Source: an uncultured virus (IMG/VR IMGVR_UViG_3300037440_000410)
Taxonomy: Duplodnaviria > Heunggongvirae > Uroviricota > Caudoviricetes
Length of the DNA: 20,000 nt
IMG/VR virus record: IMGVR_UViG_3300037440_000410
Direction: 5' to 3' (one strand)
Position 1 is the first letter of the stretch. The number at the start of each line of letters is the position of its first letter. The notes under the pieces are model-generated. The model was not told the origin of the DNA. It made no database searches and saw nothing but the letters and a program-made list of their open reading frames with translations. Of the stretch, positions 4,324-19,558 are shown piece after piece. Position numbers and translations under genes: made by a program.

Positions 4324-4628
4324 ACGCCCGTGCCCGTATCCACGCCATGTTTCCGCTGACGGAGTTGGCTGAGCGCGAGTTGGACGCCCGGCTGGACGAC
4401 CTCGTCCGGCAAGCGTTCGCGGCGGGCCGTGAATCGGCTGGCGCGGACGGGTTCCACCTCGATGACTTCCGGGCGGTGTGGACGCGGAGCGACGGCAGCG
4501 ACACGCCCGTCTCCGAACTCCGCTGTACGTGCGGCGCCCTGCTCCAGTGTGTCGGCCCGACCTCGCTGCTCGACCTCCTGATCGCCGCCACCCTCCACAA
4601 CTGCCCGCCCACCGGTGCCGCCGCATGA
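4320..4628 (+). CDS. Hypothetical protein with C-terminal CxC...HxC motif
   Basis: GTGA overlap; LRCTCG...LHNC. Confidence 0.6.
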   Translation: MNARARIHAMFPLTELAERELDARLDDLVRQAFAAGRESAGADGFHLDDFRAVWTRSDGSDTPVSELRCTCGALLQCVGPTSLLDLLIAATLHNCPPTGAAA

Positions 4629-4972
4629 GCGCCGGTCAGCGGTCCGAGATCGACGTCCTGCGCAGCCTCGTCCACGACATCCGCACCGCCGCCCACCGGG
4701 GCGACGTTACTGAAGTCCGACGCCTCCTCGACGTCCACGCAACGAAGCCCACCGCACGACGTGGCGCCCTGCTGGCTGCAATCCGTCGCAGTCCGGCCGG
4801 GCGGTGGAAGTCGGGGCGCGCAGTGACCGTGCTGCGGCCGCTCGGCTTCCACCCCATCAGCCCCGGCACTGCCGGACACGACCTTGCGGCGCTCGCCATC
4901 CAAGGCCACCTCATCCGCCATGACGAGCCCGGCTGCACCTGGTACGAGCTGCACAGGGAGGCGACCCGATGA
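4625..4972 (+). CDS. Hypothetical protein, possible C-terminal winged helix
   Basis: ATGA overlap; TAGHDLAALAIQGHLIRHDEPGCTWYEL resembles a wHTH recognition helix plus wing. Confidence 0.6.
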   Translation: MSAGQRSEIDVLRSLVHDIRTAAHRGDVTEVRRLLDVHATKPTARRGALLAAIRRSPAGRWKSGRAVTVLRPLGFHPISPGTAGHDLAALAIQGHLIRHDEPGCTWYELHREATR

Positions 4973-5152
4973 CGTACCGCCTACATCACCGCGGTCCTGG
5001 CCATCGCGTGTGCGGCCGTCGCCGCCACCGCAGTCCTCCCGATCGCCAATCCGTACACCGCGCAGGGTCTGCGGATCGTCGCCGGCGTCATCGCCGGATG
5101 GGCCGCAAGCGAACTCCTGCCCTGCCCCTGGCACCGAAAGGAACAACCGTGA
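4969..5152 (+). pseudogene. Small two-TM membrane protein gene frameshifted just after its start
   Basis: Frame 4973-5152 reads RTAYITAVLAIACAAVAATAVLPIANPYTAQGLRIVAGVIAGWAASELLPCPWHRKEQP* with high GC3 and ends in a GTGA overlap with yqaJ. The RBS-supported ATG at 4969 is out of frame with it. Confidence 0.55.
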
Positions 5153-6072
5153 CGACGACCGTGCAGGCCGAGGCTCCGGCCTCGGCCGCCGGCCCGACCG
5201 TCCTCGGCTGGTTCGAGCCTGGCTCTGAGCCGTGGCATGCCGCCCGAGCGAACGGCATCGGCGGCTCAGAGATCGCAGCAGTCCTCGGCCTCTCCCCCTA
5301 CGAGTCCGCGTTCTCCCTCTGGCACCGCAAGAAGGGACTCGTAGCCCCGGTCGAGGAGAACGACGTCATGTACTGGGGCAAGATCCACGAACCCCAGATC
5401 TGTGCCGAGTTCGCCAAGCGACACCCCGACTTCGAACTCCGCCCCTCACCGACGTACGCCTCAGCCGGCCACCCGTCGGAGATCGCCAACCCTGACCGGC
5501 TGGTCCTCGACAGCGAATGGCGGACCGTCGCCATCGTCGAGGCCAAGACGTCCCGTAACGACGAGGGATGGGGCGAAGAAGGCACCGACCAAATCCCTGT
5601 CCACTACCGGGCGCAATGCCTCTGGTACCTGATGGTCCTCGGCGTCACCACCTGCCACGTCGCTGTTCTGATCGCAGGGTCGGAGTACCGCGAGTACGTC
5701 GTCGAGTACGACCCGGCCGACGCCACCCGCATGCGGGACGCCGCCGCCGAGTTCATGCGGACGCTGGCCGCCGACGAGCGCCCGCCGATCGACGGCCACT
5801 CCGCCACCTACCAGGCCATCCGGGAGATTCCCGAGGGCCTCGACGACGTCGACGTCGAAATCGAAACCGTCCTCCGTGACCGCTTCTACACCGCGCAAGA
5901 CGCCTTCTGGCTGGCCGAGGACGAGCTGACCGCCTGCAAGGGCGCACTCCTCGACGCGATCGACACCGGCTGGCGCGCGGTCTGCGAGCAGAAGCGGATC
6001 GCTACCCGCACCGTCCGCGAAGGCCGCACCTACCAACTTCTGCCCGCACGTACACGAAGGAACGCCCGATGA
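5149..6072 (+). CDS. YqaJ-family (lambda-exonuclease-like) recombination exonuclease
   Basis: WHAARANGIGGSEIAAVLGLSPYES, WGKIHEP, ANPDRL, VEAKT, YRAQCLWYL motifs. GAAAGGA RBS before GTG 5149. Confidence 0.92.
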   Translation: MTTTVQAEAPASAAGPTVLGWFEPGSEPWHAARANGIGGSEIAAVLGLSPYESAFSLWHRKKGLVAPVEENDVMYWGKIHEPQICAEFAKRHPDFELRPSPTYASAGHPSEIANPDRLVLDSEWRTVAIVEAKTSRNDEGWGEEGTDQIPVHYRAQCLWYLMVLGVTTCHVAVLIAGSEYREYVVEYDPADATRMRDAAAEFMRTLAADERPPIDGHSATYQAIREIPEGLDDVDVEIETVLRDRFYTAQDAFWLAEDELTACKGALLDAIDTGWRAVCEQKRIATRTVREGRTYQLLPARTRRNAR

Positions 6073-6458
6073 CCGACATGCAGCCGTACGAGCGGCTCGA
6101 CCTCGTCACCCCGGTGTTCGAGAAGAACGACGTCCAGATCGACGCGTACCTCTGGTTCGCCCTGTTCGAGTACTCCGACGGCCCTGCCCCGGACCCGAAC
6201 TCCATCGAGATCGTCACCGACCTGTGGGCCACGTCGCCCGAGGGCTACGGCTCGGTCGACATCGCACTGCTCGCCCGCCTGAACGACGGCCGCTGGGCCT
6301 CCTGCGTCGCTTGGGCAGACACGACCGGCTTCGGCTGCCAGCAGGGCGTCGACTGGCGCATCAACCCCACCCGCGAGGCGGCGATCAGCCAAGGCCTCGA
6401 CAAGGAATCCCGTACGCACCTCGGGCTGTCACTGCCCGGCGAGGAGAACACCCGATGA
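6069..6458 (+). CDS. Hypothetical acidic protein lying between exonuclease and RecT
   Basis: ATGA-coupled at both ends; high GC3; flanked by a 17-bp near-identical repeat. Confidence 0.75.
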   Translation: MTDMQPYERLDLVTPVFEKNDVQIDAYLWFALFEYSDGPAPDPNSIEIVTDLWATSPEGYGSVDIALLARLNDGRWASCVAWADTTGFGCQQGVDWRINPTREAAISQGLDKESRTHLGLSLPGEENTR

Positions 6459-7324
6459 CCGAGAACACCGTCACCAACGCCGTCGCTGTCCGCGACACCG
6501 GACCCGGCGCCATGGTCGAGGCCTACCGCGCCGACCTCGCCATGGTCATGCCGTCCCACGTCAAGCCCGACACATTCGTTCGCCTCGCCGTCGGCGTCCT
6601 GCGCCGCGACCGCAACCTCGCCCAAGCCGCACAGAACAACCCCGCCGCCCTCATGGGCGCCCTCATGGACGCCGCCCAACTCGGCCTCACCCCCGGCACC
6701 GAGCAGTTCTACCTCGTCCCCCGCAAGCAGAAGGGCCGCCTGGAAATCCAGGGCATCCGCGGCTACCAGGGCGAGATCGAACTCATCTACCGGGCGGGCG
6801 CCGTCTCCTCCGTGATCGTCGAGGTCGTCCGGCAGGCCGACACCTTCCGCTACAGCCCCGGCCGCGACGAACGCCCCGCCCACGACATCGACTGGGACGC
6901 CGAAGACCGCGGCGACCTCCGCCTCGTCTACGCCTACGCGGTCATGAAGGACGGCGCCACCAGCAAGGTCGTCGTCCTCAACCGGGCGCAAGTGATGAAG
7001 GCCAAGGCCATGAGCCAGGGATCCGACTCCGCCTACTCCCCGTGGCAGAAGCACGAGGAAGCGATGTGGATGAAGACGGCTGCGCACCGGCTGACGAAGT
7101 GGGTGCCGACGTCCGCCGAGTACATGCGGGAGCAGTTGCGGGCGCAGGCCGAGGTTGCTGCCGAGCAGCCGACGCCCGCTGTCCTGTCCGTGCCTCTGCC
7201 GCAGGCTCCCGCGCCCGGCATGGGCGAGGAGTCCGACGAGGGCCCGATCGAGGCTGAGTTCGTCGACGAGGAGTCCGGTCCGGCGCAGTGGCCGGCTGCG
7301 ACCCGACCCGGTTCCGGCGCGTAG
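6455..7324 (+). CDS. recT: RecT-family ssDNA annealing protein
   Basis: ALMDAAQLGLTPG..FYLVP, GYQGEIELIYRAG, SPWQKHEEAMWMKTAAHRLTKWVPTS; acidic tail; GAGGAG RBS. Confidence 0.92.
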   Translation: MTENTVTNAVAVRDTGPGAMVEAYRADLAMVMPSHVKPDTFVRLAVGVLRRDRNLAQAAQNNPAALMGALMDAAQLGLTPGTEQFYLVPRKQKGRLEIQGIRGYQGEIELIYRAGAVSSVIVEVVRQADTFRYSPGRDERPAHDIDWDAEDRGDLRLVYAYAVMKDGATSKVVVLNRAQVMKAKAMSQGSDSAYSPWQKHEEAMWMKTAAHRLTKWVPTSAEYMREQLRAQAEVAAEQPTPAVLSVPLPQAPAPGMGEESDEGPIEAEFVDEESGPAQWPAATRPGSGA

Positions 7325-7408: not shown

Positions 7409-7786
7409 ATGAAGCGGTCGTCCCTCTCCCGCCGTCAGCACGACGAGATCCTCGCCGCCCGCCAGCGCCAGCACGACGCCGTAGTCGCCAACCTCAAGGC
7501 CGACATCGTGCGGCTGCGGAACGAGCGGGACCAGTTCGCCAAGGACCGCGCTGCCATCGCCGCGACCGCCCGCCGTGACGCGGCCGACGCAGCGGCCACC
7601 ATCGCCCGCCTGAAGGAGGACCTGGCCGCCGCGTCCTCGGGCGGCGAGAGCACGGCGTCCCTCCGCCGCCGGATCAAAAGCCTGGAGAAGCAGTACGACG
7701 ACGCCGTCGGCATGGGTGCCGGCCGGATTCAGGACAGCAGCCGCTGGCAGCCGGGCTACAAGGCGTCGCAGGGGGTGGCGTCGTGA
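7409..7786 (+). CDS. Coiled-coil hypothetical protein
   Basis: GGAGA RBS; heptad-like helical composition. Confidence 0.75.
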   Translation: MKRSSLSRRQHDEILAARQRQHDAVVANLKADIVRLRNERDQFAKDRAAIAATARRDAADAAATIARLKEDLAAASSGGESTASLRRRIKSLEKQYDDAVGMGAGRIQDSSRWQPGYKASQGVAS

Positions 7787-8037
7787 TTCCGGAGGTCACT
7801 GTTGGTGCCGCGTCCCTGATGGGCGCCCTCATATTCGCCACCGCGGCTGTCCGGTACGCGGTCGCTCCGGTGCCAAAGCCCGGCCAGCACCGCGCCCGCC
7901 GCCCGCAGCGTGTCCGCCCGGTCGAGGAGTACGTGCCCGCCTACCTCCTCGTGCCCGCCCAGCAACTGACCGCGTCGTGCCCCGACTGCGGCAGCCACAT
8001 CACCATCACCACCACCACGGCAGGGGGCCAGCGATGA
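7783..8037 (+). CDS. Small membrane-anchored protein with CPDC motif
   Basis: GTGA overlap; N-terminal hydrophobic helix; CxxC near the C-terminus. Confidence 0.6.
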   Translation: MIPEVTVGAASLMGALIFATAAVRYAVAPVPKPGQHRARRPQRVRPVEEYVPAYLLVPAQQLTASCPDCGSHITITTTTAGGQR

Positions 8038-8414
8038 GCCGCTACGACTGGATGGCCCAAGCCCTGTGCGCCCAGGTCGACCCCGGCCTGTGGCACTCCG
8101 ACCAGGGCGCCAACTACACGACAGCCAAACGCATCTGCGGCGCATGCCCCGTCAAGGTCGCGTGCGCCAACCACACGGCCCGCCTCGACACCGACACCCA
8201 CAGCCGGCACGGCATGTGGGCCGGCCAGACCCGAAAGCAGCGCGAAGCGAAACGCGCTCACGCCGAACGGCAGGCACGCCGTACCGAGATCGTCCGGCTG
8301 CTCGAGCGGGGCGGCATGGACGCCGAACAGATCGCCGACCACGTCGGATGCAGTGAACGCACCGTCTGGCGCGTACAGAAAGCCCACCGCGCCCAGATGG
8401 GAGTGGCCGCATGA
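8034..8414 (+). CDS. WhiB-family Fe-S transcription factor with C-terminal HTH
   Basis: WMAQALC...AKRICGACPVKVAC...GMWAG (4 Cys + G-x-W-x-G), then MDAEQIADHVGCSERTVWRV HTH. Confidence 0.88.
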   Translation: MSRYDWMAQALCAQVDPGLWHSDQGANYTTAKRICGACPVKVACANHTARLDTDTHSRHGMWAGQTRKQREAKRAHAERQARRTEIVRLLERGGMDAEQIADHVGCSERTVWRVQKAHRAQMGVAA

Positions 8415-8896
8415 ACGCCCTGTTCACCCCCCCTGACGGCGACTCGTGGATGGCCCAGGCCGCCTGCCGCAGCGAAGGCATCAACCCCGAGTGGTTCTTC
8501 CCCGCGCAGGAGAACGGCCCGTCCCTGTCGACCGCCCGCGGTGTCTGCGCCGGCTGCAGGGTCAGGCAGTCCTGCTACGACGACGTGATGGCCGCGGAGG
8601 CCGGTAAGGGCGAAGGCTCCCGGCATGGCGTGTACGCCGGTCTGACGGGCAACCAGCGCGCCCACCTGTACAAGCGGGCCGCGAGCCGCGCCAGGCGGGA
8701 ACGGGCCGCCGTCGAAGCGCCTGCGGCGCCTGCCGAGCCGAGGCCGTCCAGGCCGAAACTCGCGCCGTGCGGCACCCGGTCCGCGTACCAGCGGCACATC
8801 AAGAAGGGCGAGCCCGTCGACGACGCGTGCCGGAAGGCGAACACGGACGCGGACAACCGGCTGCGTCGGACCGGCAGCACGAAGCGCGCGGCCTGA
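8411..8896 (+). CDS. WhiB-family transcription factor with C-terminal CGT...RH...C module
   Basis: WMAQAAC...WFFP...ARGVCAGCRVRQSC...GVYAGLT; C-terminal PCGTRSAYQRHIKKGEPVDDAC. Confidence 0.88.
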   Translation: MNALFTPPDGDSWMAQAACRSEGINPEWFFPAQENGPSLSTARGVCAGCRVRQSCYDDVMAAEAGKGEGSRHGVYAGLTGNQRAHLYKRAASRARRERAAVEAPAAPAEPRPSRPKLAPCGTRSAYQRHIKKGEPVDDACRKANTDADNRLRRTGSTKRAA

Positions 8897-9126
8897 TGAC
8901 CGGCTGGCTCGGTGGTCTGCAAGTGCGTGCAGGTCAGGTCCCGGTCGCGGACTGGCTGTGCGCCGCCTGCCTCCTGCACCGCCGGGCCACCGGCAAACGC
9001 CGCGTGATCGACCTCGTCACCTCCGACCCCACCACCATCCACCGGGACCAATGCCCGGCCCGCAAGACCACCTGGCAGCGGCCCGCCGCAACCTGCGGCG
9101 GGCCACCCACCCAAGGAGAACACCCC
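8896..9126 (+). CDS. Small Cys/His protein (MTGWLGGLQVR...CAAC...HRDQC) running in frame into the vWA gene
   Basis: TGATG overlap with the whiB stop. No stop before the vWA ATG; TGG at 9073 sits where a stop would be expected. Confidence 0.55.
9082..9122 (+). repeat. Hairpin+RBS leader repeat, copy 1
   Basis: CCCGCCGCAACCTGCGGCGGGCCACCCACCCAAGGAGAACA; second copy at 9828-9872. Confidence 0.8.
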
Positions 9127-9813
9127 ATGATCAGCATCACCAACGTCGAGCAGCAGGCCCCCGGCCTCGTCTCCCTCGCCAAGACCGCCGCCGTCAGCCT
9201 GGAGAAGAACGGCCTCGGCGGGCAGCGCGCCGCCGTCCAGCTCGTCCTCGACCACTCCGGCAGCATGGCTCCCTTCTACGCCAACGGGTCGGTGCAGCGC
9301 CTTGCCGAGCAAGCCCTCGGCCTCAGCGTGAACCTCGACGACGACGGCGCAGTGCCGGTCATCTTCTTCGGCTCCCGCGCCGAGCAGCATGACGACGCCC
9401 GCCTCGACAACTACGCCGGGATCATCGACCACACCCACCAGGGTGTGCGCTGGGGCTCGACGGACTACGTCGCCGGGATGGACGCGGCAATCGCCGAGTA
9501 CCGCAACTCCGGGGCCACGGACCCGGCGCTCGTCATCTTCCAGACGGATGGCGAGCCGGACGACCGCGGCGCCGCCGAACGCGCGCTGCGGGCCGCGTCG
9601 ACGCTGCCGATCTTCTGGGCGTTCGTCGGGTTCGGCGGGCGCGTCTCCTTCCTGGAGAAGCTCGACGACCTCAGCGGGCGGGCCGTCGACAACGCTTCCT
9701 TCTTCCACGCGGCGAACCCGCATGCCGTGACCGACGAGCAGCTCTACGACGGGATCACCAGCGAGTTCGCGGGCTGGCTCGCCGCCGCTCGCGCCGCCGG
9801 AGTTCTCCGCTAA
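9127..9813 (+). CDS. vWA domain protein of the TerF-C-terminal (vWA-TerF-like) type
   Basis: MIDAS motif LVLDHSGSM, GSTDY, VIFQTDG, plus PIFWAFVGFG, LEKLDD, VDNASFF, LYDGITSEF; AAGGAG RBS. Confidence 0.85.
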   Translation: MISITNVEQQAPGLVSLAKTAAVSLEKNGLGGQRAAVQLVLDHSGSMAPFYANGSVQRLAEQALGLSVNLDDDGAVPVIFFGSRAEQHDDARLDNYAGIIDHTHQGVRWGSTDYVAGMDAAIAEYRNSGATDPALVIFQTDGEPDDRGAAERALRAASTLPIFWAFVGFGGRVSFLEKLDDLSGRAVDNASFFHAANPHAVTDEQLYDGITSEFAGWLAAARAAGVLR

Positions 9814-9827
9814 CCACCTGACCACGC

Positions 9828-9872
9828 CCCGCCGCAACCGAACTGCGGCGGTCTACCCACCCAAGGAGAACA
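9828..9872 (+). repeat. Hairpin+RBS leader repeat, copy 2
   Basis: CCCGCCGCAACCGAACTGCGGCGGTCTACCCACCCAAGGAGAACA. Confidence 0.8.
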
Positions 9873-9874
9873 TG

Positions 9875-11035
9875 ATGAGTACGAGACTGACGGAACTGTC
9901 GCCAGACCAGGTGGCGGCTCTCGCCACTACCCGCGAAAGATGGCTCGCCCACGGTCTCGCGACCGGCCCCGCCGACCGTGCGGAGGCAGAGGCGGGGGTG
10001 CGTGATGCATATCGTGCTGCTGGTTTGGAGCCGCCGCAGGCTGTGATCTGGCTCGATTCGCCGATGGCTGGCGCGATTGCTGCCTGGATGCTCACGACTG
10101 CTCGGGCTCAGGTCGGGGCTCAGGTCGGGGATCAGGTCGGGGATCAGGTCTGGGCTCAGGTCGGGGCTCAGGTCCGGGCTCAGGTCGGGGCTCAGGTCCG
10201 GGCTCAGGTCGGGGCTCAGGTCTGGGATCAGGTCTGGGATCAGGTCGGGGCTCAGGTCCGGGCTCAGGTCCGGGCTCAGGTCGGGGCTCAGGTCGGGGCT
10301 CAGGTCCGGGATCAGGTCCGGGCTCAGGTCCGGGATCAGGTCGGGGCTCAGGTCCGGGATCAGGTCCGGGCTCAGGTCTACAAGGCCGTACCCGGACAAC
10401 ACGACGCCGGATGGCTCGCCTTCTACGACTACTTCCACACCCACTGCACCATCCAAGAAGCAGACCGCCTCACCAGCATGATGCGCGTCGCCAAAAGCGC
10501 AGGCTGGTGGTGGCCGTTCGCCAACGCCGTCATCCTCACCGAACGCCCCACCAGCCTCCACCGCGACAGCCAAGGCCGCCTCCACCACGAGACCGGCCCC
10601 GCACTCGCCTACCCCGACGGATTCGCCATCTGGGCATGGCACGGCACCCGCGTCCCCCGCGACCTCATCGAAACCGGCTGGGACCTCAAGCAGATCTTCG
10701 ATGAACCCAACGCGGAAATCCGTCGCTGCGCCATCGAACGCATCGGCTGGGACCAGTTCATCCAGGACTCCGGCCTGAAGAAAGTCGCCTCCGCCCCCGA
10801 CCCGGGCAACGCCCCCTACCACCTCGCACTGTATGACCTGCCCGACGAACTCTCCGACCTGTACGACGACGAGGCCCGCATCCTCCTGTGCGTCAACGGC
10901 ACCGAAGAACGCGACGGCACTCGCCACCGTTTCGGGCTCCCTGTCCCCGCGCACCACACAGACCCCGTCGAAGCCGCAGCCGACCTCTACGGCTGGCCCG
11001 TCGCCGCCTACCGGCAGATGGAGGTGCGCCGCTGA
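9875..11035 (+). CDS. DUF6745-like protein with tetrapeptide repeat
   Basis: N-terminal [33 protein letters not shown]-terminal GWWWP...[13 protein letters not shown]...[28 protein letters not shown]. Start could be ATG 9872 or 9875; 9875 has the better RBS spacing. Confidence 0.8.
10103..10378 (+). repeat. Coding tandem repeat, 23 x 12 bp (NGG GMT CAG GTC) = (R/G/W)(A/D)QV
   Basis: Counted directly from the sequence and the translation; 276 bp. Confidence 0.95.
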
Positions 11036-11829: not shown

Positions 11830-12170
11830 TGGACACCGACGAGACCCCGGCGAGCGCCGACGCGGTCACCCCCGAAGTCGCCGACGAACTCCGAGCCATG
11901 CACGCCATCGCCCGCACCGTGCGCGGCTCAACCCCGATCGATGACCCGAAGCGGAAGGTCGGCGAAGAGTTCACCGAGGCGCTCGCCGTCCTCGTCGAAC
12001 AGGGCGTCACCGTCTACCGGCTCGCCAAGGTCCTCGGGATAGGCCACCAGGCCGTGTACGCGCGGCTTGCCCGTCGCGGCTACCGGAAGGCCGCCCCGTC
12101 CCACGCCCACACCGCGTACCGCAACACCACGATCTGGGACGCCCGCCGCGCCAACCAGGCCGACCAGTAG
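11829..12170 (+). CDS. HTH DNA-binding protein
   Basis: TGATG overlap; GVTVYRLAKVLGIGHQAVYARLARRGY HTH. Confidence 0.75.
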   Translation: MDTDETPASADAVTPEVADELRAMHAIARTVRGSTPIDDPKRKVGEEFTEALAVLVEQGVTVYRLAKVLGIGHQAVYARLARRGYRKAAPSHAHTAYRNTTIWDARRANQADQ

Positions 12171-12179
12171 CAGCACGAA

Positions 12180-12203
12180 GCCCCGCACCACACGGTGCGG
12201 GGC
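12180..12203. terminator. Stem-loop upstream of the HNH-helicase gene
   Basis: GCCCCGCACC-ACAC-GGTGCGGGGC, 10-bp perfect stem. Confidence 0.55.
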
Positions 12204-12241
12204 GCGGGTCCACCCCTCCGACCGGACACGAAAGGCCGCCC

Positions 12242-14275
12242 ATGGCCAGGCGCTTCAACACCAGGCAACGAGTCGCCCTCTGTCTCGCCGCTGACGGGTG
12301 CTGCGAGATGTGCGGAACCGAACTCGAACGCGGCTGGCATGCCGATCACTCAACCCCTTGGTCCCGTGGCGGAGAGACCGACGTTATCAACGGCCAAGCC
12401 CTCTGCCCCACCTGCAACCTTAGGAAAGGCTCCAGAATGCCCCTGTCTCCCCGCGCCTGGCAGCGACGCTTCATCGCGAAGTACCACGCCCACACCGGCA
12501 CCGACTTCCTCTGCGTCGCGTGCCCCGGCGCCGGCAAGACGCACGGTGCTGCATACATCACGGCGGACCTCCTGCGCGACGGAGTCATCGACCGCGTTCT
12601 GATCGTTGTGCCGGGATCAACTCTGCGTGGGCAGTGGGCGAAGACGTTCAGCGAGCACGGTATCCGCATCGACGGCAGCACCATGAACGACAAGACCGAC
12701 CATCACCCCAGGTACTGGCGCGGCGAGATCGACGCGCAAGACGGCCACCCCGTCCAGGGGTGGGCGATCACGTACCACTCCCTGGACGCCAACCCGGAGT
12801 ACCACCGGGTCCTCAATAGCCGGAAGCGCACCCTCGTGATCCTCGACGAGGTCCACCACCTCGGTGACGAAGGGGCATGGGGCAAGAGCGCCGAGGAAGC
12901 GCTCAGCGTATGCACGCGCAGGCTCAGCCTGTCTGGGACGCCATTCCGCAGCGACAACGCGAAGATCCCGTTCGCCACTTACTACCCCCGCGGCCACGAG
13001 AAAGCCGGATGGGTGCGGTTCACCGACGACGATCACCTCGGTCCATTCGCCGCCGGCTTCGACTACTCGTACGGCGTCGCCCTATCCGAGAAGCCCGCAC
13101 CGGTGCGCCCCGCAGTCTTCGAGATGTACGACAGCGACGTCTCATGGTTCGACGCGAAGGCGTTCAAAGATCGCACCGTCCGCCTCTCCCAGGAAAACCT
13201 CACCAAGAACCTCCGGCGCAAGGCCAACCGAATGGTCCTTGACCCCGCGGGGCAGTGGCTTGAGGAAGCGCTTCGGGCGGCCGACGAACGACTCACCTCC
13301 GTACAGGTCGAGGGCGACGCCGACGCGAAGGGTCTCGTGGTGTGCCTCGATACGGAGCACGCGCACGACGTCGCGCAGGTCCTGGCTCGCGTGACCGGCG
13401 TCCGCACGGTGCCCGTCGCAGCGTCCAAGGGCGAGGACGGAACCGACAGCTCTAAGCAGGCAGGGGCCGCCATCGAGGCGTTCAAGAACAGCCGGGACCG
13501 CTGGATCGTGGCCGTGGCCATGGTCTCGGAAGGCGTCGACATCCCGAAGCTCCGCGTCGGCGTGTACGCCACCAACAAGCGGACCGAGTTGTTCTTCCGC
13601 CAGGTCCTCGGGCGCCTGGTGCGCGTGAGGGAGGACCTGCCCCGGGACGTCGACCAGACCGCTTACATGTTCGTCCCGAAGGAAGAGGGCATCGTCGCCC
13701 TCGCCGACGCGGTGACCCGCGAGATCGGCGACGGCGTGATGGCGTCACTGGACGTCGACGACGAGGACGACCAAACCCGCGACCGCGGGGAGGGCAGCAG
13801 TCAAGGGAGCCTGTTCGCCGACCAGTTCCAGGGAGCGACCGGTGAAGCGGCCGGCTTCCTGCTGCCGGGATCCGGCACGTTCGACCACGAACAGGTAAGC
13901 CGGATCGCCGCGGAGGCCGGTCACGCTCCGGGCATCGTCCTCGGCGTCCTCCAGGCGGCTCAGCGAACTGGCATCACGTTCGGCCCTGGGTTCGGTCATC
14001 CGTCTCCGACCGTTCCGCAGCAGCAGGCCCAGGCTGCCCCTGAGGAGCCGTGGGAGGTCAGGGCGAGGGCCCGCCGCGCGTCTCTGGACAAGGCGGTGAA
14101 GCAGATCGCCGGGAAGCGGATGCGCAATCAGGGTGGCGGCGACTTCGGCCCGATGATGCAGCACGTGTGGTCGGAGTTGAAGAAGCGCTCCGGCATCGCC
14201 GACCTGCGCCGCGCGGACATCCCGGAGCTAGACAAGGCGGTCGCGGTTGCCCGCGAGATGTGGGCGGCGCTGTGA
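12242..14275 (+). CDS. HNH endonuclease fused to SF2 (DExH) helicase/translocase
   Basis: N-terminal CEMC...HADHSTPWSRGG...NGQALCPTCNLRKG (HNH); helicase Q motif RAWQ, Walker A PGAGKT, ILDEVHH, LSGTPFR, MVSEGVDIP, QVLGRLVR. Confidence 0.9.
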   Translation: MARRFNTRQRVALCLAADGCCEMCGTELERGWHADHSTPWSRGGETDVINGQALCPTCNLRKGSRMPLSPRAWQRRFIAKYHAHTGTDFLCVACPGAGKTHGAAYITADLLRDGVIDRVLIVVPGSTLRGQWAKTFSEHGIRIDGSTMNDKTDHHPRYWRGEIDAQDGHPVQGWAITYHSLDANPEYHRVLNSRKRTLVILDEVHHLGDEGAWGKSAEEALSVCTRRLSLSGTPFRSDNAKIPFATYYPRGHEKAGWVRFTDDDHLGPFAAGFDYSYGVALSEKPAPVRPAVFEMYDSDVSWFDAKAFKDRTVRLSQENLTKNLRRKANRMVLDPAGQWLEEALRAADERLTSVQVEGDADAKGLVVCLDTEHAHDVAQVLARVTGVRTVPVAASKGEDGTDSSKQAGAAIEAFKNSRDRWIVAVAMVSEGVDIPKLRVGVYATNKRTELFFRQVLGRLVRVREDLPRDVDQTAYMFVPKEEGIVALADAVTREIGDGVMASLDVDDEDDQTRDRGEGSSQGSLFADQFQGATGEAAGFLLPGSGTFDHEQVSRIAAEAGHAPGIVLGVLQAAQRTGITFGPGFGHPSPTVPQQQAQAAPEEPWEVRARARRASLDKAVKQIAGKRMRNQGGGDFGPMMQHVWSELKKRSGIADLRRADIPELDKAVAVAREMWAAL

Positions 14276-14871
14276 ACACGCGGGGCCATTGGACGGTGGT
14301 CCGCGAGGTGATCTCGTCGACGAGGACCGGGGCGGATGTCATGTCCGCCCTGCCGGGCCTGGTGCGGCGGCTGCTGGACGAGGACGCATGGCAGGAGTTC
14401 GACGCGCCTCCGCCGAGCGGTCACACCGAGTACGCATCGTTCCGGGAATTCGTCGAGGCGCCGGCGCCTGCTGGTTTGGGCAGTCGCCTGGGGCATCTGC
14501 TGGCGCTGTGCGGAAGCGATGACGATCTGCGCGGGCGGGTGCAGCGCTTGTACGACGAGGAGATCCAGCCGCTCGCCAAGCATGGCGGCGATCGTAGGCC
14601 GGATGGAGGCCAAGGTAATCGGATTACCTTGACGATGCAGCGCGGTGATTCCCGCGACTACGTGATCGCTCGCCTCGAACGGGACGACCCGCAGCTTGCC
14701 CAACGGGTGAAGCGTGGCGAGATCACGGCAACGGCCGCATCCCGACTCAAGGGATGGAAGAAGCCCCAGATCACGGTGACGTCGCCCGAGTCCATTGCGC
14801 GCGCACTGCGCAAGCACCTCGGCCCCGACGACCTCGCCGCGCTCGCACGTCTCCTCGCCGACAACACCTGA
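14272..14871 (+). CDS. Hypothetical protein coupled to the helicase (HGGDRR linker, C-terminal helical/HTH-like region)
   Basis: GTGA overlap; motifs FREFVEAPAPAGLG, KHGGDRR, DYVIARLERDDPQLAQRVKRGEITATAA. Confidence 0.75.
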   Translation: MNTRGHWTVVREVISSTRTGADVMSALPGLVRRLLDEDAWQEFDAPPPSGHTEYASFREFVEAPAPAGLGSRLGHLLALCGSDDDLRGRVQRLYDEEIQPLAKHGGDRRPDGGQGNRITLTMQRGDSRDYVIARLERDDPQLAQRVKRGEITATAASRLKGWKKPQITVTSPESIARALRKHLGPDDLAALARLLADNT

Positions 14872-14878
14872 CCACCCC

Positions 14879-14905
14879 AGGGGCGGCCCACCACGGGCCG
14901 CCCCT
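14879..14905. terminator. Stem-loop
   Basis: AGGGGCGGCCC-ACCAC-GGGCCGCCCCT, 11-bp perfect stem. Confidence 0.55.
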
Positions 14906-14926
14906 CCAACCCGTGAACGGGACCCC

Positions 14927-15808
14927 ATGACCACCAGCCCCACCAAGCTCGGCCCCCTCGGCCCGCTCCCCATCCCGGTAGCGCCCGCCGTCATGCTCAT
15001 CACGCCCGAGACTGCGGCCGACTGGCTAGAGAACCGCAACATCGGCAACCGCGCCAAGAGCAACGTCGCAGCCCGCCGCTACGCCCGCCTCATCCAGGCG
15101 AAACGCTGGAAGTGCACCCACCAGGGCATCGCCTTCGACCGCGACGGCTGGCTCATCGACGGCCAGCACCGCCTCATGGCCATCGTCGCAACCGGCATCC
15201 CCGTGAAGCTTTTCATCATCCCGTTCATCGAAGGCATGGACGAGAAGACGTTCGACGTCCTCGACAGCGGCCACAAGCGCCAAGCCGCACAACTCCTCGA
15301 CGGAGTCGGCGCCAACGCGCGAGCCGCAGCAGCCCGCTACCTCGGAGTCGTCGACGACTCGTTCGGCCCCGAGCACCGCATCGTGCAGGGCATCACCGCC
15401 ACCTCCGTCGAGACGGCCGACGTCCTGGAAGTCGTCAAGGAATGGCCGGAACTCCTGGCATGGGCCAGCGTCATGGGGACGGCCAACAGGAACGCCCACG
15501 TCCCGCCGGGCCCGCACCTAGCAGTCCTCGCCCAGGCCGAGCGCTCGCCCCACCGAGACCGGATCGAACCGTGGCTCGACGGCATCAACTCGGGCATCGG
15601 CCTTGAGGCGAAGGATCCGCGGCTGCTGGTCAGGAACCGGTTCATCAGCGGCACCCGGCTCGCTCACGGGCATGCCGGCCAGTGCATGGCGTACCGGCTG
15701 CTGGTGAAGGCGTGGAATGCGCACGCGGTCGGCGGGTCGCTCGGAGTGCTACGGGCGAGTGACAGTGAGGCCCGACCGGAGGTCATCGGGTCTGGCGGTA
15801 CGTCGTGA
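14927..15808 (+). CDS. ParB/Srx-superfamily N-terminal domain protein (DGQHRL)
   Basis: ITPETAADWLENRNIGNR...W..THQGIAFDRDGWLIDGQHRLMAIV...DVLDSGHKR, typical of phage ParB-like proteins. Confidence 0.75.
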   Translation: MTTSPTKLGPLGPLPIPVAPAVMLITPETAADWLENRNIGNRAKSNVAARRYARLIQAKRWKCTHQGIAFDRDGWLIDGQHRLMAIVATGIPVKLFIIPFIEGMDEKTFDVLDSGHKRQAAQLLDGVGANARAAAARYLGVVDDSFGPEHRIVQGITATSVETADVLEVVKEWPELLAWASVMGTANRNAHVPPGPHLAVLAQAERSPHRDRIEPWLDGINSGIGLEAKDPRLLVRNRFISGTRLAHGHAGQCMAYRLLVKAWNAHAVGGSLGVLRASDSEARPEVIGSGGTS

Positions 15809-15829
15809 CCGCGGGCTCCGGGTGCCGTG

Positions 15830-15856
15830 GGGCGGCTGGCCTAGTGCCGGCCGCCC
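15830..15856. terminator. Probable bidirectional terminator between convergent genes
   Basis: GGGCGGCTGGC-CTAGT-GCCGGCCGCCC between the stops at 15808 (+) and 15868 (-). Confidence 0.55.
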
Positions 15857-15867
15857 GCGGCGGCGCG

Positions 15868-16059
15868 TCAGGACTCGGCGATGGTGCGGGCGGCGCCGGC
15901 GTCACGTTGACGCTTCTTCCACGCCGTGATCTGCCGGTGGATGTGACGCCGGAGGTCGTCGGCTCGCGTCGTCCCCAGGTCCTTGCACGCCTGCTCGTAG
16001 GCGGTCCACGTCTCGCTGTCGACGCGGATCACGCGACCGGGGGTTCCCTTCGTCGTCAT
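15868..16059 (-). CDS. Ribbon-helix-helix (CopG/Arc-like) protein, probably leaderless
   Basis: MTTKGTPGRVIRVDSETWTAYEQACKDLGTTRADDLRRHI fits the RHH pattern. No RBS; TACGCT lies 6 nt upstream of ATG 16059. Confidence 0.7.
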   Translation of the reverse strand: MTTKGTPGRVIRVDSETWTAYEQACKDLGTTRADDLRRHIHRQITAWKKRQRDAGAARTIAES

Positions 16060-16251
16060 GTCGACAGCGTAGCTGACCGGACACGCGATGGGCACCACGC
16101 CTCCGCTTTCAATCACTCGGTGCCCGTGCGGTGTAGGGGCACCCGGGGTAGTATGGGACAAGCCGGAAGGGCGATCACCGCCCCGACGAAGCCGCCATGA
16201 GCGCTGCCCAAAACCAGGCCATGACCAGCAACGACGGCGAGAGAAGAGCAC

Positions 16252-17190
16252 GTGAGTACAGAGGCCATGAAGTGGGCGGTGGAGTTCGCCCCACCCATGC
16301 CTGCCCAACTGGTCGCCACCCTGACCGGGCTGGCCTACCACGCGGACACCAAAGGGCGCGGCGCGTACCCGTCGCTGGCCCGTCTCGCCGCATACACCTG
16401 CAAGTCCGAGCGATCCGTACGCCGTGATCTGCGGGATCTCGAAGAGCTCAAGCTGATTCGCCAGGGCGACCAGGACAAGGCCGGCCACATCACGGCCGAC
16501 AAGCGCCCGACGGTCTACGACCTGGCGGTGGAGAACCGCGTTCCGAAGGGCCGCGCGGGCGACGACGAGGGGACGCGGACGTCCGCCCGGACGCTGGCGT
16601 CCGCCCGTGCGCGGGGCGCTGAGGCACGCAGGGCAAAGAAGGCCAGCTCAGAGCGCGAATCAGACTCGGAGCGGGAGGACGTGGACGTCCGGGGGGACGT
16701 CGGCGTCCGCCCGGACGTGGACGTCACAGCGGGGGGACGTCCACGTCACAGCGGGGGGACGTGGACGTCCGCCGAACCAAAAGATGAACCTCAAGACGAA
16801 CAACTACCTAAAGACTCTTCTTCGCCTGCGGCTCAGGCAGACGAGCCAATCGAGCAGCCGCACCTCGAAGCCTTCGGTGCCTTCTGGTCCAACTACCCGA
16901 AGAAGAAGGCCCGCGAAGAAGCCCGCAAGGCGTGGATCGCCGCCATCAAACGCGGAGCCGACCCCCAGCACATGGTCGAACGATCCCAGGCCTACGCCTA
17001 CGAGCGTCGCGGCCAGGACCCCAAGTACACGAAGTACCCGGCGACCTGGCTCAACAAGGGCTGCTACGACGACGAACCCGACCCCCAGCCGGCCCCCGGC
17101 AGCAGGCCCAAGCTGCGCGCCGTCGGCGACTGGGAGCCCTGGCGGAACCCCACCAACCAAGACGACTACGACCAGCCCTTCTTCGACTAG
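16252..17190 (+). CDS. Phage replication initiator (N-terminal wHTH, C-terminal FWSNYPKK...YPATWLN domain)
   Basis: LAYHAD...AYPSLARLAAYTCKSERSVRRDLRDLEELKLI; internal iterons; followed by a DnaC-like gene. Confidence 0.85.
   Translation: MSTEAMKWAVEFAPPMPAQLVATLTGLAYHADTKGRGAYPSLARLAAYTCKSERSVRRDLRDLEELKLIRQGDQDKAGHITADKRPTVYDLAVENRVPKGRAGDDEGTRTSARTLASARARGAEARRAKKASSERESDSEREDVDVRGDVGVRPDVDVTAGGRPRHSGGTWTSAEPKDEPQDEQLPKDSSSPAAQADEPIEQPHLEAFGAFWSNYPKKKAREEARKAWIAAIKRGADPQHMVERSQAYAYERRGQDPKYTKYPATWLNKGCYDDEPDPQPAPGSRPKLRAVGDWEPWRNPTNQDDYDQPFFD
16571..16823. repeat. Probable replication origin: seven GGACG-N4-CGTC iterons plus an A-rich tract
   Basis: Copies at 16571, 16589, 16677, 16695, 16713, 16735 and 16757; A-rich segment at about 16774-16823. 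Confidence 0.75.
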
Positions 17191-17198
17191 GACCCGCC

Positions 17199-17885
17199 AT
17201 GAACGAGAAGCCCATCGACCTCACCAACTGGCTGCCCATCCTCGAAGCCCACAACATCGACCCCGAACTCATCAACAGCGACCCCGCCACCTGGGTCGGT
17301 GAACCCGGCTTCCACACCCGCCGCGGCATCCTCACCGCCGAAGCCAGCGTCCCCTTCATCTACCGCACCGCACTCCCCACCCTCCCCGACGTCCGCGCAT
17401 GGGCAGACAGCTACCTGACCGCCAACCAGGACATGAACAGCAAGAGCACACCCCACCACCGCTCGCTGCTCCTCCTCGGCTCCACCGGCGTCGGCAAAAC
17501 CCACCAGGCCTACGGCGTCCTGCGCTACCTGTCCGCCGCAGACATCCACACCGCGTGGAAGACGACCAGCGCCGCAGACATGTACGCCTCCCTCCGGCCC
17601 CGGCACGGCGTCGACTCGGAAACCGAGTTCCGCAAGTACGCGCACACCCAACTGCTGATGATCGACGACCTTGGCGCAGCCAAACCGTCCGAATGGACCG
17701 AAGAGATCAACTTCCGGCTCGTCAACCACCGCTACGAAAACCGGCTCCCCACGATCATCACCTCGAACGTCCTCCCCAAGGAACTCACCGAACGCGTCGG
17801 CGAACGCGTCGCCTCCCGCCTCGTCGGCATGTCCGACCGCGTCGTCCTCCGCGGCACCGACCGCCGAAACGAGGAAGCCGCATGA
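17199..17885 (+). CDS. DnaC/IstB-like AAA+ ATPase, helicase loader
   Basis: Walker A GSTGVGKT, Walker B LLMIDDLGA, TIITSN, GERVASRL; directly after the initiator. Confidence 0.9.
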   Translation: MNEKPIDLTNWLPILEAHNIDPELINSDPATWVGEPGFHTRRGILTAEASVPFIYRTALPTLPDVRAWADSYLTANQDMNSKSTPHHRSLLLLGSTGVGKTHQAYGVLRYLSAADIHTAWKTTSAADMYASLRPRHGVDSETEFRKYAHTQLLMIDDLGAAKPSEWTEEINFRLVNHRYENRLPTIITSNVLPKELTERVGERVASRLVGMSDRVVLRGTDRRNEEAA

Positions 17886-19288: not shown

Positions 19289-19558
19289 ATGACCCAGCCC
19301 ACCGCCCAGCAGCTCGACGAAATCCAGGCCCGCGCCGCCCACCTCACCGAGTACGCCACCCTGACCGACCAGCCTCTCCAAGCCGACGCCGACCAACTGA
19401 CCGGAGAGGACGTGCCCGCCCTCGTCGCCGAAGTCCGCCGCCTCACCGACCGCGTCACCGAGCTGGAAAACGACTCGGCCATGCTCTCCGCCCTCTACGC
19501 CGCCGGAGTCGACAGCTGGGACGGCTACGACGAAGCCCGCGACCGGCTACACGCCTGA
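19289..19558 (+). CDS. Ead/Ea22-like coiled-coil hypothetical protein
   Basis: GGAG RBS; LDEIQARAA...DVPALVAEVRRL...ALYAAGVDSWDGY. Confidence 0.75.
   Translation: MTQPTAQQLDEIQARAAHLTEYATLTDQPLQADADQLTGEDVPALVAEVRRLTDRVTELENDSAMLSALYAAGVDSWDGYDEARDRLHA

Follow-up and report, generated by a model that had tools for sequence, protein, structure and literature searches.

The 20,000-nucleotide stretch of DNA analyzed here, referred to as the window, belongs to an uncultured virus of the Caudoviricetes (IMG/VR record IMGVR_UViG_3300037440_000410). Between positions 12,242 and 15,808 it carries a gene in which an HNH nuclease domain is fused to a superfamily 2 (SF2) helicase, a partner gene that overlaps the end of the fusion gene, and a third gene of ParB-like type. 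A preliminary description, made from the letters alone, had treated the three genes as one module; we find that the fusion gene and its partner form a conserved two-gene cassette, and that the ParB-like gene lies outside it. The features of the region are as follows.

12242-14275, plus strand: HNH + SF2 helicase fusion gene, ATG start, 677 aa
12242-12439, plus strand: HNH (H-N-N type) nuclease domain, residues 1-66, two CxxC zinc pairs
12443-13726, plus strand: SF2 DExH translocase/helicase core, judged XPB/RadD-like, residues 68-495
13727-14275, plus strand: C-terminal region, residues 496-677, with an acidic linker, a small beta/alpha unit and a three-helix tail in an AlphaFold2 (AF2) model
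14272-14871, plus strand: partner gene, GTG start, 199 aa, with an alpha/beta domain (residues 1-100) and a helical domain (residues 125-199)
14927-15808, plus strand: ParB/Srx-like (DGQHR-type) gene, 293 aa, ATG start most plausible
12180-12203: perfect GC-rich hairpin, 10-bp stem and 4-nt loop
14879-14905: perfect hairpin, 11-bp stem and 5-nt loop, 8 nt past the partner stop codon

The N-terminal domain of the fusion protein matches the Pfam HNH model (PF01844) at residues 21-65 with an E value of 4.6e-11 and 43.1 bits, against a gathering cut-off of 21.4, and its PHROG matches are to HNH and endonuclease VII families. The motor gives a ResIII match in Pfam at residues 69-236 (E 2.5e-14), a score for the Helicase_C model on the second RecA-like lobe (22.9 bits) that falls just below the cut-off of 23.5, and an alignment with XPBII that spans both helicase lobes (profile positions 68-435). 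These matches confirm the fusion of an HNH domain of about 65 residues to a DExH helicase that the preliminary description had read from the translation, and every helicase motif string quoted there is found in the product of 12242-14275. In an alignment with 18 relatives of 35-77% identity, the invariant HNH residues are C21, C24, D35, H36, N50, C55, C58, and N59. From general knowledge of the HNH fold, we take D35-H36 to supply the catalytic histidine, and we assign a structural asparagine, a metal-binding residue, and the zinc-holding CxxC pairs on the same assumption. Within the motor, the Walker A residues G96-K99, the DExH residues D202/E203/H205/H206, S231-P234 of motif III, and Q454/G457/R458/R461 of motif VI are invariant in the same 18 sequences, as are the motif strings DEVHH, SGTP, and QxxGRxxR.

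When the helicase profile was compared with the sequences of solved structures, the best relatives were Sulfolobus XPBII (3e-21), Archaeoglobus XPB (1.7e-15), and E. coli RadD (1.2e-10). The R-S-D sequence of the family (TPfRsD) aligns with the RED/RDD motif of XPB (TPERDD in StXPBII, FEREDG in AfXPB); R236 is shared by at least 90% of sequences, and the middle residue of the RED-like motif is variable. XPB carries an N-terminal damage-recognition domain (DRD). This domain is missing from the fusion protein, which has the HNH domain there instead, and the alignments with XPB begin at residue 68. The AF2 model of the fusion protein has a predicted local distance difference test (pLDDT) score of 74.5 and a predicted template modeling score of 0.63, and its closest Foldseek matches are RadD (1.7e-15; template modeling [TM] score by target 0.46 over 434 aligned columns) and XPB-Bax1 (3e-13), followed by type ISP restriction enzymes, Snf2 remodelers, SauUSI, and ZorD. 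Sequence profiles and predicted structure thus both describe the helicase core as XPB/RadD-like.

Relatives of the helicase are abundant: 7,528 of the 8,000 scored candidates fall at an E value of 0.001 or lower, and among the best 120 listed, 115 contain PF01844 and ResIII together. Fusion relatives come from genomes of Streptomyces, Kitasatospora, Micromonospora, and Actinocatenispora, among others, and paralogues that lack the HNH domain are found on the chromosomes of mycobacteria, Nocardia, Rhodococcus, and others. The public gene call starts the helicase at M66 (P0005, 612 aa), a start at which the HNH domain is lost. The longer, 677-residue reading is supported because homologues of 677-680 residues carry PF01844.

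The GTG start codon of the partner gene at 14272 overlaps the TGA stop codon of the helicase gene (14273-14275) by 4 nt, and the coupling by a GTGA overlap and the partner length of 199 residues noted in the preliminary description are both borne out in the sequence. The predicted partner structure is confident (pLDDT 85.3) and consists of an alpha/beta N-terminal domain, a disordered linker with pLDDT below 50 at residues 102-106 and 113-122, and a helical C-terminal domain. The HGGDRR sequence, singled out earlier as a feature of the partner, is not conserved: it lies in the low-confidence linker and is present in only part of 35 aligned homologues. Here, too, the public gene call is short, starting at M24 (P0288, 176 aa) and dropping the first 23 residues (14272-14340); the longer start is supported because the N-terminal helix is conserved in homologues. 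Automated annotation, which cuts off both the HNH domain and the first helix of the partner, therefore hides the fusion architecture. An antisense open reading frame (ORF) of 311 residues at 14128-15063 on the minus strand, with a G+C content at third codon positions (GC3) of 0.78, spans the partner gene. It was set aside as a probable artifact of high G+C content, which its low-complexity translation, rich in arginine, glycine, and proline, resembles.

No Pfam, PHROG, PADLOC, or NCBIfam family matched the partner, and Pfam searches with all 35 homologues gave no family common to more than one member. The partner profile reached a best E value of 0.33 against PDB sequences, and Foldseek against PDB gave a best E value of 1.6, with ParB DNA-binding domains listed at a probability of 0.04. 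The best hit of a VIA-wide fold search was an unrelated protein with a Z score of 6.0, within the stated noise range of the tool. Three matches at an E value of 0.001 or lower were obtained in BFVD, two of them uncharacterized and one nameless, and the Atlas returned only unnamed viral clusters, with DUF3102 (score 0.81) at chance level. The family itself is large, for the profile finds 6,251 clusters at 50% identity among 1.84 billion representatives, 3,373 of them at an E value of 1e-10 or lower. No fusion of partner and helicase of the Rosetta-stone kind was seen among the best 150 of the 6,251 matches, which are 143-374 residues long. The partner thus belongs to a large family that is absent from Pfam, PHROG, and PADLOC and matches no known fold.

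A variant cassette was also encountered (loci L003, L004, L344, L347, and L348, and plasmid SAP1, which is L325), in which the gene after the HNH-helicase encodes 450-480 residues. This long form shares only its first ~90 residues with the 200-residue partner. The L347 copy adjoins a gene for a 1,187-residue phrog_16694 helicase and methyltransferase-like genes.

We then examined how regularly the two genes occur together. Because single-protein scans for loci returned almost nothing, alignments served as queries, and the helicase alignment retrieved 80 loci each from reference genomes and IMG/VR. Co-occurrence was scored in the 151 loci that hold the helicase core, with a partner profile built from 35 homologues and separate profiles for the HNH domain, the core, and the C-terminal domain (CTD). 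The partner lies directly downstream of 60 of the 65 HNH-fused helicases and is not adjacent in the other 5; at the 86 HNH-less loci it is directly downstream in 4 and not adjacent in 82. The partner therefore tracks the nuclease domain and not the motor. The nuclease-helicase fusion with a translationally coupled partner, a prediction of the preliminary description, is accordingly a real recurrent unit.

The exceptions are instructive. Among the five HNH-fused loci without an adjacent partner, L127 and L148 end at a contig edge, L145 and L147 are distant relatives, and L110 has its helicase gene interrupted by about 1.3 kb (4338-6855), with the partner behind the interruption. In three viral contigs (L144, L151, and L153) the HNH domain is a separate ORF just upstream of the motor, the split lying at about 7900-8200, and L131 is the only true HNH-less helicase with a partner. 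Insertions, frameshifts, or errors of assembly may account for the interruption in L110 and the splits in the three contigs. Of 48 tblastn-positive loci, 30 share the 4-nt start/stop overlap and a further 13 overlap by 1-29 nt, counts that lean toward overlap because the partner start nearest the helicase stop was chosen. A reciprocal scan of reference genomes with a 13-row partner sub-alignment placed an HNH-helicase immediately upstream in 19 of 35 partner-like loci. The other 16 comprise 12 partial-domain matches and 4 full-length partners without a helicase (L339, L341, L343, and L342, whose upstream stretch is too short to judge). A metagenome scan with over-general patterns yielded mostly HNH-less paralogues, and about 4 of its 80 loci were matched from the HNH region.

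Prediction of the helicase-partner complex gave a median score of 0.45 from runs that disagreed (0.45, 0.00, and 0.65), with 0.00 for the best control; partner pLDDT was at least 68, and agreement between runs was at least 0% of contacts. In the calibration of this procedure, 116 of 157 solved complexes passed the mark, as did 2 of 215 mismatched pairs, and the range at or below 0.60 contains only 18 of those 157 complexes together with both passing mismatches. The modeling thus points weakly toward binding of the partner to the helicase. The CTD of the helicase was considered as a docking site specific to the partner and was rejected: the CTD profile matches 37 of 60 cassette helicases, and it also matches 75 of 82 HNH-less paralogues that have no partner.

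The preliminary description had placed the pair between perfect hairpins, and both are present and perfect. The upstream hairpin, which is 10 nt past the preceding ORF stop and 39 nt short of the helicase ATG, probably serves as a terminator or RNA-stability element and has no T tract. The hairpin at 14879 marks the 3' end of the two-gene unit. They are not special, however, as perfect stems of at least 10 bp occur at six sites of the window, these two included. At related loci, a perfect hairpin of at least 9 bp follows the partner stop in 6 of 60, compared with 1.1% of random windows, and an upstream hairpin is found in 2 of 60. We therefore rejected the idea that the hairpins are cassette boundaries or att-like sites. 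A codon bias toward A/T endings relative to the neighbors was not seen either, the helicase having a GC3 of 0.85 and the partner one of 0.80, within the range of 0.68-0.94 spanned by the other 22 called genes.

The product of the third gene contains the predicted DGQHRL motif (as LIDGQHRL), and its family keeps a GxLIDGQHRL box. Its best family is phrog_5931 (E 1.1e-43), whose function is unknown. No Pfam family matched at an E value of 0.01 or lower, so that the ParB_N model (PF02195) was missed; TIGR03187 (DGQHR) scored 18 bits against a cut-off of 58.85, and no PADLOC model matched. The Atlas provided leads only, namely a nearby cluster of which 20% carries ParB_N, and structural neighbors named DGQHR at TM scores of 0.75-0.76. 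The gene lies beside the cassette in four places: in the window, in L327 (in the same order), and in phage PIS 136 and L143 (upstream of the helicase in both). In the first round of loci it adjoins the cassette in 2 of 162, and in the partner loci in 1 of 35. Conversely, of 599 candidate stretches from viral contigs, 573 code for a ParB-like relative, and the partner is present in 0 of the 80 best ParB-like loci, 5 of which show only weak matches to the helicase profile (E 7e-10 to 5.5e-6). These counts (2/162, 1/35, and 0/80) do not support a three-gene module.

DNA-metabolism genes flank the ParB-like gene in 13 of 25 annotated loci, and its neighbors include genes for exonuclease VIII-type proteins, DnaB, canonical ParB-like proteins, initiators, SSB, primase, RusA, and other phrog_16 helicases. 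We conclude that it is a separate, common phage early gene. A looser association of ParB-like genes with helicases may exist in phage early regions, and there is a hint that the three genes are kept together within the closest lineage of the window, as the same contigs seem to recur among close relatives. In L285, L291, and L292, the ParB-like gene stands beside phrog_16 SF2 helicases that have neither an HNH domain nor a partner, and a second, canonical ParB-like gene is present.

Among 50,697 cultured phage records, the cassette was found in one, that of Saccharomonospora phage PIS 136, and a megablast search of cultured phages with positions 12000-16000 gave no match. IMG/VR contigs carry it frequently. 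In isolate genomes, copies are located in prophage-like DNA of Streptomyces and its relatives, in the company of integrase, Ant, holin, initiator, and SSB genes, and others are carried by Streptomyces plasmids, including SAP1 with its longer, 452-residue partner form. The cassette is thus a mobile two-gene unit of temperate actinobacterial phages, prophages, and plasmids.

We annotated the neighborhoods of 18 cassette loci, leaving out L138 and L142, in which the helicase was missed by the GC3-based gene caller. In 7 of the 18, replication or recombination genes are no more than four called genes away from the cassette, and 3 are non-phage chromosomal settings (L003, L005, and L007). An initiator is directly downstream in L084, L087, L125, and L136, DnaB is nearby in L085, L113, and L134, and L084 also has an exonuclease and RecT. 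An automatic rule finds an initiator-like ORF after the partner in 9 of 82 cassette loci, and inspection of the coordinates raises this number to 11. One of the full-length partner homologues without a helicase (L343) comes right after DnaB and a Rep-O-like gene. The GC3 of the cassette deviates from that of its flanks in L007, L120, and L134, and L087 has a neighbor of toxin-antitoxin type.

The window has a G+C content of 69%, carries almost all of its genes on the plus strand, and looks like the early part of a temperate phage of Streptomyces type. Its proteins are assigned in the protein collection to a contig of 73,028 bp. The following features were annotated by Pfam and PHROG outside the region described above.

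4969-6072: YqaJ-type exonuclease
6224-7324: RecT
7716-8414 and 8411-8896, plus strand: adjacent pair of WhiB-like regulators
within 8767-9813, plus strand: vWA-TerF-like protein (E 4.5e-59)
9872-11035, plus strand: DUF6745 protein (E 1.5e-43)
between the DUF6745 gene and the helicase gene: two unknown ORFs
15805-16200: unknown ORF
16252-17190, plus strand: replication initiator (HTH_36, phrog_270)
16932-17885, plus strand: ORF of a DnaC/IstB-like helicase loader, the ATPase being residues 174-315 of the listed ORF; true start uncertain
19289-19558, plus strand: T7 gp5.9-like protein, 89 aa (Pfam Phage_T7_Gp5_9, E 4.3e-12, residues 54-85)

Because the window encodes an initiator and a DnaC-like loader, and because related loci have DnaB beside the cassette (L085, L113, and L134), the cassette helicase is not the replicative helicase, as the preliminary description had argued; we take it for an accessory enzyme. 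Its partner is obligatory and probably stoichiometric. We tentatively favor, at somewhat less than even confidence, a cassette that acts as an accessory machine for processing branched DNA, by analogy with XPB-Bax1 or ZRANB3. Gene 1 would provide an ATP-driven double-stranded DNA (dsDNA) translocase of XPB/RadD type in which a zinc-bound HNH domain replaces the damage-recognition domain of XPB, and gene 2 would provide the translationally coupled two-domain protein of about 200 residues that is present essentially only with the HNH domain. Coupling and co-occurrence suggest that the partner binds the fusion protein at about 1:1 and aims or restrains the nuclease. The motor, as its homology to XPB and RadD suggests, would load on branched or bubble DNA such as forks and D-loops, and the HNH domain, by analogy with XPB-Bax1 and ZRANB3, would nick or cut one arm. 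The complex may in this way process stalled forks, D-loops, and recombination intermediates of early phage replication and of RecT/exonuclease recombination. The presence of the YqaJ exonuclease, RecT, the initiator, and the DnaC-like loader in the same window supports such a role.

Three known systems frame the comparison. The archaeal XPB-Bax1 complex is described as a motor that opens dsDNA and is paired with a nuclease and protein partner (PMC7293015). The cassette resembles it in that no solved structure matches the sequence of the helicase core better than XPB and in the alignment of the RED/RDD motif with R-S-D. It differs in that its nuclease is an HNH domain fused to the N terminus in place of the DRD, whereas Bax1 is a separate protein; in that our searches show no relationship between the partner and Bax1; and in that its carriers are phages and plasmids, any repair role being putative. 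RadD (YejH), the top structural match, is reported to act in strand exchange and on recombination or branched intermediates, and a role in recombination fits the RecT/exonuclease context of the window. RadD, however, lacks a nuclease domain as well as a coupled partner gene, and identity to it is only 17-19%. ZRANB3 is presented as an ATP-dependent, structure-specific HNH endonuclease that works at forks and is regulated by PCNA (PMC5481773). Like the cassette protein, it unites an SF2 dsDNA translocase with an HNH nuclease in one polypeptide, but its HNH domain is C-terminal, its motor is of SNF2 type, and it is eukaryotic; the comparison covers the shared domains. We found no description of the fusion-plus-partner unit in the literature searched, which took in few subscription journals.

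Several observations weigh against a role in DNA processing. No activity, substrate, or phenotype is on record for any member of the cassette. The 18 annotated loci were picked for diversity and not at random, their gene calls are crude, and 8 of them have no replication neighbor, their surroundings being uninformative or devoted to other phage functions. The closest relative (L083, 76% identity) lies in a very different neighborhood with endolysin, PIN, and NUDIX genes, and the L003 copy adjoins a pPIWI_RE module. In L005 (8001-10600) and L007 (7986-10476), from Pyrinomonadaceae and Anaerolineaceae metagenome-assembled genomes, respectively, the cassette is an isolated two-gene insert among housekeeping genes of non-actinobacterial hosts. 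The former is flanked by an ABC transporter gene and IS110/GroEL, and the latter by genes for a PBP and AadA/SufE. The GC3 of the inserts (0.34 in L007 and 0.54/0.46 in L005, compared with about 0.4-0.7 in the flanking genes) is part of a picture that suggests recent transfer far outside the Actinomycetota. Occurrence in a single cultured phage is, moreover, odd for a generally useful replication accessory.

Alternatively, the cassette may be a conflict system, that is, a nuclease-helicase weapon of temperate elements used for superinfection exclusion, for anti-plasmid or anti-phage defense, or for degradation of host DNA. The motor would translocate on target DNA and the HNH domain would cut, with the partner as sensor, specificity subunit, or immunity-like restraint. 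We regard this as the main rival, a substantial possibility though less likely than the processing role, and its specific two-component form, in which the partner licenses or restrains a translocating HNH nuclease that destroys rival phage or plasmid DNA (or that of the host), as slightly more doubtful. Nuclease-helicase fusions are a recurrent defense architecture. The best PADLOC matches of the helicase are PbeA models (5.1e-22), and the type ISP enzymes, SauUSI, and ZorD are among the Foldseek results; PbeA (Dnd/Pbe), the type ISP enzymes, and ZorD share with the cassette a ResIII-type motor and the logic of joining a motor to a nuclease. The partner goes with the HNH domain and not with the helicase core, which is the behavior expected of an immunity or regulator protein, and the distribution is patchy and mobile: close relatives lie in different neighborhoods, and the inserts in L005 and L007, the pPIWI_RE neighbor, and the toxin-antitoxin type neighbor all fit, as does enrichment in prophages and Streptomyces plasmids with near absence from cultured phages. 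The PbeA matches, however, cover residues 67-237 only. No PADLOC or NCBIfam defense model is satisfied, the curated NCBIfam cut-offs being missed by an order of magnitude (50.8 against 600 bits for dnd_restrict_1, 30 against 500 for DpdE), and the companion genes of the known systems are absent from the cassette. In phages the cassette tends toward the early replication/recombination operon, often directly before the initiator; the partner homologue in the DnaB/Rep-O module of L343 has no nuclease with it; and no toxicity or target is evidenced.

Mobility of this kind might also reflect a selfish element of homing type, whose HNH nuclease would cut cassette-free alleles so that the cassette spreads by their repair, with the helicase and partner assisting invasion or the choice of target. 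HNH is the commonest homing-endonuclease fold in phages, and movement between unrelated contexts, deviating GC3 in L007, L120, and L134, the interrupted helicase of L110, and the split between HNH domain and core in L144, L151, and L153 are compatible with such a history. We nevertheless find it improbable, as known homing endonuclease genes do not resemble a 2.6-kb unit in which the motor is fully conserved and a second gene is conserved too, the invariance of all catalytic helicase motifs argues for selection on motor function, and no pair of empty and filled alleles was seen. Least probable of all is a three-gene module, proposed in the preliminary description, in which the partner and the ParB-like protein would form a split ParB-type clamp that works with the nuclease-helicase. 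The adjacency in the window, L327, PIS 136, and L143 is in its favor, and the C-terminal helices of the partner look like a helix-turn-helix by eye. The rarity of that adjacency and the wide, independent occurrence of the ParB-like family, often among DNA-metabolism genes, argue against it, and the profile and fold searches detected no relationship of the partner to ParB.

If the favored role in DNA processing is correct, the cassette is a counterpart in bacterial viruses of XPB-Bax1 and ZRANB3; should it be a weapon, it represents a new defense or exclusion family overlooked by current defense catalogues. The strict linkage of HNH domain and partner leads under either reading to the testable hypothesis that the partner controls the nuclease. 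The cassette is common, yet neither the pairing nor the partner family is represented by a Pfam or PHROG family or by a solved structure.

Three further observations concern other genes of the window. The first WhiB-like gene (7716-8414) encodes a WhiB domain followed by HTH_23; its GC3 of 0.73 is low for the phage, and its start is uncertain. A vWA-TerF-like gene is also found upstream of the cassette in L087. The C terminus of the 19289-19558 product matches a family of RecBCD inhibitors, and the gene is possibly a counter-defense gene of anti-RecBCD/AdnAB type in an actinophage.

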